Below are positions 48,988 to 56,541 of a stretch of DNA of 64,000 nt, piece after piece. This stretch comes from a virus: IMG/VR virus record IMGVR_UViG_3300009788_000087; one strand, given 5' to 3'. Below the pieces are notes generated by a model. The model did no database searches. It was given only the letters and a program-made list of their open reading frames with translations, and had not been told where the DNA came from. Positions within the stretch are counted from its first letter, which is position 1. Each line of letters begins with the position of its first letter. The position numbers and the translations under genes were made by a program.

Positions 48988-48999
48988 AATAAAAATTAG

Positions 49000-49071
49000 T
49001 AGGCCAGAAGGGAATCGAACCCTAAATCACACGCTTATAAGGCATGCGCTCTACCATTGAGCTACTGGCCT
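49000..49071 (-). tRNA. trnI: tRNA-Ile(TAT)
   Basis: CATGC-CTTATAA-GCGTG; clean cloverleaf. Confidence 0.9.
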
Positions 49072-49494: not shown

Positions 49495-49577
49495 GGTGGG
49501 AGCCGGTGGAGTTGAACCACCAACAGCCGAAGCGTCTGGTTTACAGCCAGGTGAGCTCGCCAATGCTCAGCACTCCC
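49495..49577 (-). tRNA. trnY: tRNA-Tyr(GTA)
   Basis: Loop CTGTAAA, long variable arm. Confidence 0.9.
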
Positions 49578-50257: not shown

Positions 50258-50333
50258 TGGTACCGCCGAGTGGATTCGAACCACCACTTTACGCGTTCTA
50301 AGCGCGCTCTCTCTGCCGTTGGAGTACGGCGGT
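50258..50333 (-). tRNA. trnL: tRNA-Leu(TAG), short variable loop
   Basis: Loop CTTAGAA, A73, CCA. Confidence 0.9.
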
Positions 50334-50363: not shown

Positions 50364-50440
50364 TGGTGCCCCGAGTGAGATTCGAACTCACACTGTCACG
50401 CGTCTCAGGCGTGTCTCTCTTCCAATTGGAGTATCGGGGC
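50364..50440 (-). tRNA. trnL: tRNA-Leu(GAG), short variable loop
   Basis: Loop CTGAGAC, A73, CCA. Confidence 0.9.
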
Positions 50441-50833: not shown

Positions 50834-51433
50834 ATGCAACGATTTCTTATTACTGGTTGTCCGAGATCTGGAACTAAATTCATTGCTGACCTCTTAAGCA
50901 ACTTAGGAATTAAATGTGGTTGGGAGCAAATCTATAATTATGATATCGCTGCGTGGGGAGAAGGTGTTGTTGGTGAATCTAGCTGGCTTTCTGTCCAACA
51001 CTTTGATGTTCTTCCAGAAGATGTCATTGTGTTGCACCAAGTTCGTTATCCTCCAGAAGTTATCAAATCAATGATGCACTGGACTATATTAGAATCTGGT
51101 AAAGATAAAGCACATGCTTCTCGAACCACAAATAAACCCGAAAGATATGTCATTAGGGGATCAGAAAGAAGACAGCTGATATACGAAAGATTTTGGGTAG
51201 ACATCAACAATATCATTGCTGAACGTGCAGTGTATAGATGGAAAGTTGAAGATATAGATTTCGAAATTTACAACTTGCTTGACATCATCAAAATCAAAGT
51301 GCCAGAAGACAAAATAAAAAAAGAACTTGAATCAATCAATCGAAAAATAAACTCGGGTCATTATAAAGGACCTAAGCAGTTAAAAGATCCGGATGCAATA
51401 AAGCTCGCAGAATCCTATGGCTACAAACTATAA
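50834..51433 (+). CDS. sulfotransferase-family protein
   Basis: ITGCPRSGTKF 5'-PSB motif, GESSW, VLHQVRYP; only convincing plus-strand gene. Confidence 0.8.
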   Translation: MQRFLITGCPRSGTKFIADLLSNLGIKCGWEQIYNYDIAAWGEGVVGESSWLSVQHFDVLPEDVIVLHQVRYPPEVIKSMMHWTILESGKDKAHASRTTNKPERYVIRGSERRQLIYERFWVDINNIIAERAVYRWKVEDIDFEIYNLLDIIKIKVPEDKIKKELESINRKINSGHYKGPKQLKDPDAIKLAESYGYKL

Positions 51434-51436
51434 ACG

Positions 51437-51525
51437 ATGGGCGTCCTAGGCCAGACTAGACGATACCTCCCTACGTATGCATCCGTAAGTTGAAAGGCAG
51501 TAGGATTTGAACCTGCGTTTCCCAT
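51437..51525 (-). ncRNA. circularly permuted, anticodon-less tRNA mimic (unit D)
   Basis: Order: ATGGG / var / T arm / TGCCTTT-hairpin-GGAGGTA / D arm / CCCAT. Confidence 0.75.
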
Positions 51526-51531
51526 AAACTT

Positions 51532-51619
51532 GAGGTGGCTCTGCCGCTGAGCTACAATTCCTCGTCGGTCATGGCCGAACATCATCAGAATTGGTTGGAT
51601 TCGAACCAACGCACACCCC
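51532..51619 (-). ncRNA. circularly permuted, anticodon-less tRNA mimic (unit C)
   Basis: Order: GGGGT / var / T arm GTTGG-TTCGAAT-CCAAC / CAATTCT-hairpin-GGAATTG / D arm / ACCTC. Confidence 0.8.
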
Positions 51620-51621
51620 TT

Positions 51622-51697
51622 TGGTATCCTCAGATGGATTCGAGCCAACATTCTCCACCATGTCACGGTGGCGCTTTTCCGGTTAAGCTATGAGGAC
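51622..51697 (-). tRNA. trnV: tRNA-Val(GAC)
   Basis: Loop GTGACAT (G32/U38), CCA. Confidence 0.85.
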
Positions 51698-51702
51698 AAA
51701 AC

Positions 51703-51833
51703 TGGTGGGGGAGACGGGATTCGAACCCGCATAACCTGAAGCCCTTTAAAAACTTCGCGCCAGTCCAATTGCTGGACTTCTAGGTGTTAACACCACATAT
51801 AAAGCGGCTGCCTATCCAATCGGCTACTCCCCA
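51703..51833 (-). ncRNA. 131-nt tRNA-like RNA with giant branched variable region and encoded CCA
   Basis: Acceptor, D arm, T arm and ACCA all present; about 60 extra nt 3' of a TTTATAT-loop arm. Confidence 0.7.
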
Positions 51834-51839
51834 AAAACT

Positions 51840-51914
51840 TGGTACCTCGTGTCAGAATCGAACTGATCGTCGTGCGGTTATCGGCCGCACACTCTGCCAT
51901 TGAGCTAACGAGGT
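51840..51914 (-). tRNA. trnI: tRNA-Ile(GAT), C33 variant
   Basis: TGCGG-CCGATAA-CCGCA, CCA. Confidence 0.85.
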
Positions 51915-51920
51915 AAAAAG

Positions 51921-52000
51921 TGGACGCGAAGAGAATCGAACTCTTGTCCTAAATTGTTCCATTTGTCGGCTTACAACCTAGTCGAAACCAGCGCGCGCCC
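51921..52000 (-). ncRNA. ssrA: mini-tmRNA (tRNA-like domain only)
   Basis: GGGCGCG...TGGTTTCGAC, G3:U70, P2a stem, GGAC linker, T arm, A73; only a 15-nt loop where the mRNA domain should be. Confidence 0.75.
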
Positions 52001-52482: not shown

Positions 52483-52601
52483 AGAAGAGATAGAAGACAA
52501 CCGTCATGCAACATGCTTGCAATCTATCTCAATGAATCAACAAGTTGCAATTGAAGATCCATAACTCATCCTGAATAGCCCAAGGATTTCCAGACGAGTA
52601 G

Positions 52602-52675
52602 TGCCCGCCGCGAGATTCGAACTCGCAACTCTCACTTTTTGAAAGTGATCCCTCTTCCAATTGGGGTAGACGGGC
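52602..52675 (-). tRNA. trnL: tRNA-Leu(CAA), short variable loop
   Basis: TCACT-TTCAAAA-AGTGA. Confidence 0.9.
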
Positions 52676-52785
52676 TAACGACCGCGATTGAACCCGGCCG
52701 ACACGTTTTTGATTCCGATGCAATTAATATTACAGCAGCTAATGATCGTCCGGTTCGAACATACCAGGAACGTGCTCCTGGATTG

Positions 52786-52858
52786 TGCTCCTGAAGAGAT
52801 TCGAACTCTTGCTGGACCGGGCTTAAACCGGATGTCTCTGCCGTTGGACTACAGGAGC
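52786..52858 (-). tRNA. trnL: tRNA-Leu(TAA), short variable loop
   Basis: Loop TTTAAGC. Confidence 0.9.
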
Positions 52859-53069: not shown

Positions 53070-53098
53070 ATTATACCATCTCACTTTTCATATGTAAA
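53070..53098 (-). promoter_or_regulatory. sigma70-like promoter
   Basis: TTTACA-17 nt-TATAAT. Confidence 0.75.
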
Positions 53099-55367: not shown

Positions 55368-55558
55368 ATTGTTGCGACTTATGTTGATCAACACGTTTAA
55401 TCTTCGTCTTTAGATCTAAGAACCTGCGAGTTACCATTACTCCACCTCGTCGCTCAATTCACTGATTATTTCAATGAACTCAGCGACAAGGGCTGGATAC
55501 GAACCAGCATTTCAGGTGAATTTGTACGAAGAGTTAGAGATGACCTACCACAACGATA
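55368..55558 (-). ncRNA. YrlA-like (Y RNA) permuted tRNA mimic (unit B)
   Basis: ACCTG / AAAT / T arm / approx. 20-bp closed acceptor hairpin / D arm / CAGGT, extended by a long terminal helix. Confidence 0.75.
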
Positions 55559-55561
55559 TTA

Positions 55562-55793
55562 AACTTTTGAGGAATAGTCTAAGTTTTACTTATCACTTTT
55601 AATGGACATAGAGAGTTAATCTCTACGCGTCTACCAATTTCGCCACCCGATATAAACGGAGCAGTGAGATATCCACGACTTAACGTATTCATCTTTGCTC
55701 CTAACCAGTATATCTACTGGTTTAGTTATCGGGGCAGGCATCGAACCTACACGTCCCTAAAATGATCAATGAACTTTAGTCTAAATCTCAGCT
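55562..55793 (-). ncRNA. circularly permuted tRNA-Leu(UAA)-like RNA opened in the variable arm (unit A)
   Basis: T arm, CCCGATA+A73, 74-nt insert, TATCGGG, Leu-type D arm, TAGAG-ATTAACT-CTCTA; TGTCC pairs with the upstream GGACG. Confidence 0.75.
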
Positions 55794-55806
55794 TACCTCA
55801 AACCTC

Positions 55807-56541
55807 CTAGCTACCAAACAGGTAGTCAAAAACTCGTTTACCGACCGTTGCCTTTGGAGCATTGGTGCTATTTGCTTCTTCACGTGCAAACTTCGCTGCC
55901 TTAAGCAGAGTTTCAATACGACGAAGGAACGTTTTCTTCCGTGAAGAGAGAATCGCGCCGGACTGCTTCACTGTATCCCAGTGACCGACCGTAACATCTC
56001 TAGTGATGAGCTGTGTCTGAGCTGGATGTTCTGGCGTTGCATCGTACATGACAATCGGCTCTTGGACCTTTGCCGTCGAACGTGTTGTCACTGCGGCAGT
56101 CTTGAATAGACTCGCAGCATCATCATGATTCCACTCCTCATCCGTGGAGAGAGTTGGCAGCGACTCAACGAATGTCCTAATGTCAATCAACTGCTTCTCA
56201 AGGAAAAGCAAATACGTTGCTGGAACCTTTTCCAAAAGAACAGCACCGTCTACAACAACATCAGCTTTTGCTGCAGTGTTGGCAAAATCCTTCTGAGCGG
56301 TGACATCAAACAATTCACTAAGCGACTCAGACGCCGCATCGAGAACTTCATCAACACGCGCTTGGACATGCTTGATCTCGTTAGGGCGTTCTTCACCTTC
56401 CTCATTACTCTTTCGCCACGATTTAGCAAAACCGTTAAAAAGATCACTCTTTTGAGCGACCTTGTACAACCTTGTGAGCTCCGACTTTGCTCGAGTCTTC
56501 ACACCCTTCTCAATAGCGATTACTTGATTTAGTTTTGGCAT
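55807..56541 (-). CDS. conserved coiled-coil hypothetical protein (phage/actinobacterial family)
   Basis: MPKLNQVIAIEKGVK...VPATYLLFLEK...HPAQ...AKFAREEAN; I recognise the family but know no function. Confidence 0.85.
   Translation of the reverse strand: MPKLNQVIAIEKGVKTRAKSELTRLYKVAQKSDLFNGFAKSWRKSNEEGEERPNEIKHVQARVDEVLDAASESLSELFDVTAQKDFANTAAKADVVVDGAVLLEKVPATYLLFLEKQLIDIRTFVESLPTLSTDEEWNHDDAASLFKTAAVTTRSTAKVQEPIVMYDATPEHPAQTQLITRDVTVGHWDTVKQSGAILSSRKKTFLRRIETLLKAAKFAREEANSTNAPKATVGKRVFDYLFGS

Follow-up and report, generated by a model that had tools for sequence, protein, structure and literature searches.

A 131-nt glutamine-type tRNA gene with a UAU anticodon and a 56-nt variable-loop insert in a phage tRNA array

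A CCA-ended tRNA-type gene of 131 nt was found on the minus strand of a 64,000-nt stretch of phage DNA (IMG/VR record IMGVR_UViG_3300009788_000087, here called the window), at positions 51703-51833. The gene has the body of a glutamine tRNA, the anticodon UAU and a self-pairing insert of 56 nt in its variable loop. Our tentative reading, at somewhat below an even chance, is that its product is shaped like a tRNA, is matured but not spliced and has an extra arm, and that it is possibly a spare decoder of AUA. The insert itself would most simply be a tolerated passenger.

A complete cloverleaf with an enlarged variable region

The 131-nt gene matched the Rfam tRNA model RF00005 with 36.5 bits (cut-off 29) and with model positions 1-71 all aligned, and the alignment placed the extra 58 nt as a single insertion in the variable region. 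The acceptor was 7 bp long, the anticodon stem 5 bp with a 7-nt loop, and the T stem 5 bp, as is standard for a cloverleaf. The conserved U8, A14, G18-G19, U33, UUCGAAU T loop, A58, G53-C61 and the encoded CCA were all present. The only acceptor mismatch was U1·C72, and the remaining stems all paired. The unconstrained minimum-energy fold of the 131 nt was a cloverleaf with a long extra hairpin, and the partition function gave the four cloverleaf helices probabilities of 0.64-0.96. An 8/4 acceptor/T fold was rejected, the gene having the 7/5 arrangement. ARAGORN gave no call for the gene; it misses it, and genes of this kind stay unannotated. The initial annotation had described an acceptor with a U1·C72 mismatch, a UAU anticodon arm, a T arm and a terminal ACCA, and each of these elements was recovered on the minus strand where it had been placed. 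The parts of the gene are as follows.

51703..51833, minus strand: whole 131-nt tRNA-type gene; RF00005 36.5 bits, minimum-energy cloverleaf, identical in Logan contig L056
51827..51833, minus strand: acceptor 5' strand UGGGGAG, pairing with CUCCCCC at 51707-51713, U1·C72 mismatched
51810..51824, minus strand: D arm GCC-GAUUGGAUA-GGC, a tRNA-Gln signature together with the acceptor 5' strand; preceded by U8-A9
51792..51808, minus strand: anticodon arm GCCGC-UUUAUAU-GUGGU, stem probability 0.64-0.80
51799-51801, minus strand: anticodon UAU
51732..51787, minus strand: variable-loop insert of 56 nt between direct GUUA repeats
51762..51778, minus strand: insert hairpin 1, AGUCCA-GCAAU-UGGACU, six perfect pairs, pair probability 0.54-0.66, present in the centroid fold
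51738..51756, minus strand: insert hairpin 2, GAAGUUU-UUAAA-GGGCUUC, pair probability 0.56-0.64
51714..51730, minus strand: T arm GCGGG-UUCGAAU-CCCGU, probability 0.85-0.96
51706, minus strand: discriminator A73
51703-51705, minus strand: encoded CCA

A glutamine-type body with a phage-type acceptor end

The first 24 nt of the gene, with six D-loop positions left free, give the motif TGGGGAGTAGCC....GG..AGGC. When one genome per bacterial species was searched with this motif, at least 120 stretches were returned. Among the matches listed, the motif stretch belonged to a tRNA-Gln (UUG or CUG) in 114 of the 114 bacterial matches that were typed with ARAGORN. A Gln-like D arm had been pointed out in the initial annotation, and the genome motif search bore this out and extended the likeness to the whole 5' acceptor strand. 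The top bacterial match among the matches listed was a tRNA-Gln(UUG) of Geothrix, about 76% identical when the insert was removed, and other Acidobacteriota were likewise among the top matches. Some of the T-stem differences between the gene and tRNA-Gln(UUG) of Acidobacteriota preserve pairing. A comparison of the anticodon loops (UUUAUAU in the gene, UUUUGAU in tRNA-Gln(UUG)) showed that U32, U33, U34, A37 and U38 are equal and that positions 35 and 36 alone differ. The glutamine signature and a loop that differs only at these two positions therefore make this a Gln-type tRNA with an AUA-reading anticodon, and, judged from its body, the gene is a descendant of a glutamine tRNA.

In addition to UGGGGAG, U8-A9 and GCC....GG..AGGC followed by A26, the gene shares with tRNA-Gln(UUG/CUG) the five loop positions named above and the 3' acceptor strand CUCCCC. 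Position 73 was G in 83 and A, as in the gene, in 22 of 105 bacterial Gln-type tRNAs among the matches listed. It differs from tRNA-Gln in having UAU and not YUG, which carries U35 and G36, and in the 56-nt insert in the variable loop. A further difference is that the weak pair U1-A72 is replaced by U1·C72, a mismatch that, among the matches listed, occurs in phage copies only. Position 72 was A in all 105 bacterial Gln-type tRNAs among the matches listed, none of which had a 1:72 mismatch, while such a mismatch was present in 5 of the 16 Gln-type phage tRNAs in IMG/VR that share this 5' motif. The U1·C72 mismatch therefore recurs among phage Gln-type tRNAs and does not point to decay. The binding of EF-Tu may be weaker when 1:72 is mismatched, as in the initiator tRNA. 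One of the phage tRNAs, an amber suppressor (CUA) of the Gln type, has an acceptor stem (UGGGGAG/CUCCCCC) identical to that of the 131-nt gene:

locus L316, 3277-3300, minus strand: motif of the CUA Gln-type tRNA

Another locus (L307) carries a Gln-type body with the asparagine anticodon GUU.

Decoding of AUA and amino-acid identity

Among the marks of an AUA-reading tRNA-Ile, the gene has UAU, A37 and A73. Its D arm and acceptor differ from those of the phage's own tRNA-Ile(GAU) and tRNA-Ile(UAU), and its best similarity scores within the window were low, at 19, with Pro and Ile(UAU) tied. The E. coli GlnRS depends strongly on U35 and G36; the gene has A35 and U36 and hence does not carry these GlnRS-type elements. 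The E. coli IleRS uses the anticodon loop, A73, C29-G41, 4:69 and 12:23, of which the first three are present in the gene and the last two differ. With a Gln-type body and a UAU anticodon, the gene therefore holds the full identity set for no synthetase. The initial annotation had called the RNA chargeable, and on this mixed identity charging would be less straightforward than it supposed.

AUA accounted for 26% of the isoleucine codons in the genes of the window. At 26 AUA sites with aligned homologues, the aligned residue was V, I, L or M in 81% and never Q, a profile equal to that of AUU sites. As far as these homologues indicate, AUA was shown to be a hydrophobic residue in this phage, and a recoding of AUA to glutamine was rejected because the AUA sites align with hydrophobic residues and never with Q. 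Since AUA is not glutamine, the 131-nt tRNA, if active in translation, must carry isoleucine or do harm. A canonical tRNA with the same anticodon is encoded nearby, and as a reader of AUA the 131-nt gene is therefore redundant:

48999..49071, minus strand: canonical 73-nt tRNA(UAU) with an Ile-type body, 2.7 kb from the 131-nt gene

Different registers for the anticodon were considered and rejected. An ochre-suppressor register (UUA) leaves the shifted stem unpaired. If insert hairpin 2 were the real anticodon arm (UAA), its stem would have 6 bp and 53 nt would have to be inserted at position 26, and it is the first hairpin that the Rfam alignment uses.

Structure of the 56-nt insert

The GUUA direct repeat that flanks the insert lies at 51788-51791 and 51732-51735. 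The insert starts with ACACCUAGAAG and ends with CUUCAGGUUA, which form an inverted repeat with one bulge. Read as ACCU(A)GAAG and CUUCAGGU, the two ends make an imperfect 8-nt inverted repeat with one bulge, a length that, like the 4 nt of GUUA, could be due to chance. When the insert was removed in silico, 75 nt remained, with GUUAU as a 5-nt variable loop, and their fold, at -27.2 kcal/mol, was a perfect cloverleaf of class I. The isolated 60-nt region folded at -16.3 kcal/mol (z -2.41), a value equalled by 7 of 200 shuffles. In the whole gene, the distance from the anticodon stem to the T arm was 58-61 nt; the gene thus has a variable arm of more than 10 nt that forms a stem-loop, as class II tRNAs do, with the z of -2.41 given above.

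Two arrangements of the insert were found. In the two-hairpin form, which made up about 65% of the ensemble, hairpins 1 and 2 stand separately and about 13 nt, mostly unpaired, loosely link the insert to the core. Alternatively, the 3' strand of hairpin 2 pairs with GAAGUCC and closes the whole insert. The initial annotation had proposed a branched variable region of about 60 nt closed by CCT(A)GAAG/CTTCAGG. Such a closed form, ACCU(A)GAAGUCC/GGGCUUCAGGU, is indeed the minimum-energy fold, but it accounted for only about 33% of the ensemble, so that the proposal holds in part.

No second copy of the insert was found in the window or in 55 related loci, and the insert hairpin pattern had no match in IMG/VR. 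The insert matched no family, intron or ribozyme in Rfam at E up to 1, and a ribozyme in the insert was rejected for lack of an Rfam match. A bulge-helix-bulge intron was also rejected after inspection of the fold, in which the sole bulge, A53, lies on the wrong strand of a 4-bp helix. The view that the insert is too short for a self-splicing intron, already taken in the initial annotation, agrees with its length of 56 nt, far under the size of group I and group II introns, and with the lack of a match to an intron or ribozyme family.

The tRNA array and the reality of the gene

The gene lies in an array on the minus strand that holds 32 tRNAs called by ARAGORN, the 131-nt gene and a tRNA-Tyr(GUA) seen by Rfam alone. 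Two canonical tRNA-Gln genes belong to the same array. The closest neighbours and the nearest promoter-like site are listed here.

53070..53098, minus strand: promoter-like TTTACA-17-TATAAT with an upstream TG, a consensus match, nearest upstream for this part of the array
51840..51914, minus strand: upstream neighbour tRNA-Ile(GAU), ending 6 nt ahead of the 131-nt gene
51622..51697, minus strand: downstream neighbour tRNA-Val(GAC), starting 5 nt past the encoded CCA
49497-49577, minus strand: tRNA-Tyr(GUA), Rfam only

The spacers of 6 and 5 nt are similar to those of the neighbouring genes, which suggests that the 131-nt gene shares the transcription and processing of the array. Promoter-like sites were no more numerous than in shuffled sequence. 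No terminator-like site was reported by the scan between the promoter-like site at 53070-53098 and the 131-nt gene.

An independently assembled Logan contig (L056, run SRR5210996) contained the identical 131 nt and showed 1 mismatch to the window in 8513 nt, and four contigs in the Logan index carry the gene that neighbours the 131-nt gene. The identity in an independent contig makes an artefact of one assembler unlikely, and the gene thereby passed the check for an assembly artefact that the initial annotation had named as a way in which its reading could fail. The size of the phage is about 196 kb, taken from the longest contig recorded with proteins of the window, and it encodes a baseplate wedge protein. 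Pfam scans of 30 proteins named no RNA ligase or splicing endonuclease among those tested.

Searches for related genes

Related loci were collected through the neighbouring DUF7873 gene (55807-56541), which gave 55 IMG/VR loci with 33-61% identity and Logan relatives with up to 67%. The closest syntenic relatives were three Logan contigs (L057-L059) with a DUF7873 protein 67% identical and with the local order kept: tRNA-Gln, an RNase H-like gene, Ala, His, further tRNAs, Met, a reduced tmRNA and Ile(GAU). A counterpart of the 131-nt gene is absent from these three contigs, where unrelated elements come after Ile(GAU).

A blastn search of INPHARED phages with 601 nt returned no homologue, and none came from IMG/VR when it was searched for exact copies of the anticodon arm, D arm and insert hairpin and, with a degenerate pattern, for a Gln body with UAU. 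In the JGI metagenomes, no gene was found with the same anticodon and T arms and a variable region of 3-33 nt, a range that includes the empty-site form. When a UAU loop followed by a T loop 40-70 nt on was sought in the same metagenomes, there were 0 cloverleafs among the 120 matches listed, and none of the 120 matches listed was a UAU tRNA with a variable region of 36-66 nt. About 1.2 Mb of related phage DNA, in which ARAGORN called about 515 tRNAs, was screened with blastn and with a custom cloverleaf scan, and no further single tRNA as large as this one came up. When a covariance model built on the 131 nt was run over 1.19 Mb, the highest-scoring sequences apart from the gene were tRNAs of ordinary or long-armed type, 76-94 nt in length, with 43-45 bits, compared to 173 bits for the gene itself. 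At the top were a long-armed tRNA-Cys (44.7 bits), a tRNA-Gln(UUG) (43.6 bits) and, in third place, a 92-nt tRNA(UAU) in locus L031 (43.2 bits). An Rfam tRNA search of five whole IMG/VR relatives gave no tRNA longer than 91 nt among the matches listed.

Within the collections searched, the 131-nt gene is by these comparisons a singleton. As no homologue turned up, neither the insert nor the gene has support from conservation or covariation. The initial annotation had made its reading depend on conservation of the insert, and this test was not passed, as no homologue was present in the collections searched and the closest syntenic relatives were without the gene. Within a limited coverage of the literature, we found no description of an insert this large in a variable region or of a Gln-type body with UAU.

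The array contains other tRNA-like RNAs. An RNA of 83-85 nt matches the Rfam tmRNA family with 60-64 bits in the tRNA-like domain only; it has G3·U70, and 13 nt replace about 300. It lies beside tRNA genes in three related phage contigs and is therefore conserved, unlike the 131-nt tRNA:

window 51918-52000, minus strand: reduced tmRNA
L002 11075-11159: reduced tmRNA
L057 15614-15696: reduced tmRNA
L058 15695-15777: reduced tmRNA

A tRNA-like unit at 51439-51556 (minus strand), taken to be circularly permuted in the initial annotation, aligned at 71% with the syntenic 16111-16228 of L057.

Extra variable arms in related phages and in known systems

In full length, the roughly 515 tRNAs of the related phages reached 94 nt at most, and the variable regions measured in the cloverleaf scan 23 nt. 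Twelve tRNAs with an anticodon other than Leu, Ser or Tyr reached 83-94 nt through an extra variable hairpin, and four of the twelve had UAU. The extra hairpins on UAU tRNAs were found in loci L007, L031 and L040. In L031 and L040, the variable hairpin GCGU-CUGAUAA-GCGC of a 92-nt tRNA(UAU) copies the anticodon loop of Ile(GAU), and L007 has CUGACAA at the place of this hairpin loop. Three tRNAs of the syntenic relative L057 each carry an extra variable hairpin of 10-15 nt and measure 84-85 nt in total. Such hairpins outside class II are therefore recurrent in these phages, and an extra arm on the 131-nt gene is the less surprising.

L031 17997-18088: 92-nt tRNA(UAU)
L040 15963-16054: 92-nt tRNA(UAU)
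L007 6342-6429: tRNA(UAU) with CUGACAA in the variable hairpin
L057 19932-20016: tRNA-Lys(CUU)
L057 20020-20103: tRNA-Lys(UUU)
L057 20496-20579: tRNA-Asp(GUC)

The 131-nt gene resembles the five-arm tRNA-Ile(UAU/GAU) of L031 and L040 in having a UAU arm and an enlarged variable region within a phage tRNA array. In contrast to these, its insert is about 2.5 times longer, its acceptor is of the Gln type and its insert contains no GAU. The lack of a GAU-type loop in the insert places the 131-nt gene outside the five-arm tRNA-Ile design.

The allo-tRNAs, in which UAU is among the predominant anticodons and the acceptor/T stems are 8/4 or 9/3 (Mukai et al. 2016, PMC5389517), likewise combine a long variable arm with a non-Ser, non-Leu anticodon; the 131-nt gene differs from them by its 7/5 stems. 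According to Mukai 2020 (PMC7590224), engineered tRNAs with aptamers grafted onto the variable arm remain active in translation, and the variable arm has also been given a 'pseudo-anticodon'. Such tagged tRNAs share with the 131-nt gene a foreign hairpin on the variable arm, but they are designed and use an allo-tRNA chassis, whereas the 131-nt gene is natural and no partner protein was found for it.

Class II tRNAs (Leu, Ser, bacterial Tyr and Sec) also have an extra helical element between the anticodon stem and the T arm. In these it is a single short stem, whereas the 131-nt gene has 58-61 nt folded as two hairpins or as one long irregular one, and it has neither the anticodon nor the body of a Leu, Ser, Tyr or Sec tRNA, being of the Gln type with UAU. 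Rickettsia palindromic elements are short palindromic insertions in stable RNA genes and occur in multiple copies. Like them, the insert of the 131-nt gene is short and pairs with itself, is bordered by a short repeat and lies at an exposed surface position of a structured RNA; it differs in being single-copy in the window and in the related loci.

All four tRNA-Leu genes of the window, at 74-77 nt, lack a long variable arm, which is unusual for a bacterial-type tRNA-Leu; the related loci mix short and long forms.

50258-50333, minus strand: tRNA-Leu
50364-50440, minus strand: tRNA-Leu
52601-52675, minus strand: tRNA-Leu
52785-52858, minus strand: tRNA-Leu

Possible origin and function

On the reading that we tentatively favour, a tRNA gene descended from tRNA-Gln would have changed twice, by gaining a UAU anticodon and by receiving a 56-nt self-pairing insert in a variable loop of five bases. 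The 131-nt gene would be transcribed together with the neighbouring tRNAs of the array, RNase P would cut the 5' end, and trimming back from the next tRNA would leave the encoded CCA. The 131-nt RNA would remain unspliced and adopt the normal L-shaped tRNA fold, with the insert projecting from the variable pocket at the site of the class II extra arm. If charged, it could serve on the ribosome as a second reader of AUA, a codon heavily used by the phage, and would then have to carry isoleucine. As far as the sequence can tell, the intact core, the encoded CCA, the tight fit to the array, the phage-typical acceptor and the self-closing insert favour full-length production and maturation. The mixed identity, the redundancy and the lack of a relative would in turn count against a spare reader of AUA.

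An unlikely but still quite plausible alternative is that a redundant Gln-derived gene was hit by a small palindromic insertion, that its product is inactive or nearly so, and that it persists because the event is recent and the sequence short. The GUUA repeat flanks exactly 56 nt with inverted ends, and their removal restores a perfect 75-nt tRNA, as expected for such an event; moreover, neither the nearest syntenic relatives nor any collection searched has the gene. The presence of a canonical tRNA(UAU) and two canonical tRNA-Gln genes in the array, and a mixed Gln/Ile identity with no obvious charging enzyme, also fit a disabled gene. However, the insert is single-copy in the 64 kb and absent from the approximately 1.2 Mb of relatives and so gives no sign of a mobile family, the 4-nt repeat is possible by chance, and no empty-site allele appeared in the scan of JGI metagenomes. 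The core is also undecayed, with only 1:72 unpaired, a mismatch typical of phage Gln-type tRNAs. The same exact removal of the insert, to a perfect class I tRNA, would be achieved by excision of an intron that joined GUGGUGUUA to UGCGGG and left a 75-nt tRNA. This is very improbable, since 56 nt is far below the size of group I and II introns, no intron or ribozyme was matched at E up to 1, no bulge-helix-bulge was visible by inspection, and neither an RNA ligase nor a splicing endonuclease was named among the 30 proteins scanned with Pfam. Splicing at the variable loop is not known to us from bacteria or phages. That the 131 nt are an assembly artefact or a chimera is hardly credible given the SRR5210996 contig, which was assembled independently, has the identical 131 nt and differs at 1 base in 8513 nt, and given the four contigs with the neighbour gene.

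It is rather unlikely that the RNA is a tRNA look-alike inactive in translation, in which a Gln-type shell secures cleavage by RNase P, the CCA end and stability, or else attracts a host factor specific for tRNA-Gln, and the insert does the work, either as a handle for a protein or an RNA or as a decoy for a defence nuclease that cuts tRNAs. Other tRNA-like RNAs in the array, namely the reduced tmRNA and the permuted tRNA-like unit, are kept by relatives and lend this some weight, and so does the Gln-type acceptor end retained with an anticodon unfit for glutamine. The mostly unpaired 13-nt linker of the two-hairpin form could pair with a target. Host defences cut tRNAs, including the variable loop of tRNA-Tyr according to one study (PMC13096335), and phage tRNAs counter such tRNA-cutting defences (PMC10264068, PMC11555353). 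Several points speak against a look-alike: neither a partner nor a target nor a conserved motif emerged, the insert matched no Rfam family, the gene is a singleton, and its anticodon arm is ordinary, with a 5-bp stem, 7-nt loop, U33 and A37, features that would be superfluous in a decoy. More improbable is a natural tRNA scaffold, in which a Gln-type shell was retargeted to an anticodon for AUA and a functional 56-nt module recruits a charging enzyme or another protein, in the manner of engineered pseudo-anticodon and aptamer arms, or works as a decoy for a tRNA-cutting host nuclease; this would fit the other tRNA mimics of the same array.

If the tentatively favoured reading holds and the RNA is both stable and charged, the variable pocket tolerates natural additions far larger than a class II arm, and a tRNA can keep the frame of one amino acid while it reads the codon of another. 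Both points, if true, would matter for tRNA identity and for the construction of orthogonal or tagged tRNAs. A decoy or scaffold would add evidence for phage tRNA arrays in conflict with host defences that target tRNAs, and a functional scaffold would represent a new way for phages to build tRNA-based effectors. A disabled gene would be an ordinary by-product of the fast turnover of phage tRNA arrays.

Other features of the window and related loci

Many related loci showed weak matches of 140-155 nt to a tRNA-based model at a recurring place, on the downstream side of the DUF7873 gene and about 150-300 nt from it. The stretch 55393-55504 of the window aligned at 70% with 10954-11067 of L057. 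This suggests that a conserved tRNA-like RNA, called YrlA-like in the initial annotation, may follow the DUF7873 gene. Pistol ribozyme matches with 39-58 bits (cut-off 34.5) were found in related contigs near DUF7873 and tRNA genes.

window ~55390-55800, minus strand: weak tRNA-model matches past the DUF7873 gene
L013 10914-11067 and L062 10658-10813: examples of the same in related loci
L060 922-986 and 4705-4768: Pistol ribozyme matches
L061 1996-2060 and 9080-9165: Pistol ribozyme matches

The sole sizeable plus-strand gene within the tRNA array (50834-51433) encodes a protein of 199 aa with an N-terminal GCPRSGT motif, which we take to be sulfotransferase-like; the protein had no Pfam match and distant homologues only. 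A long run of sugar-metabolism genes occupies about 20700-44200 on the minus strand of the window. It contains several glycosyltransferases, two NAD-dependent epimerase/dehydratases, a UDP-glucose/GDP-mannose dehydrogenase and a phosphomannomutase, and also a TylF-type methyltransferase, a PfkB kinase and a polysaccharide deacetylase.
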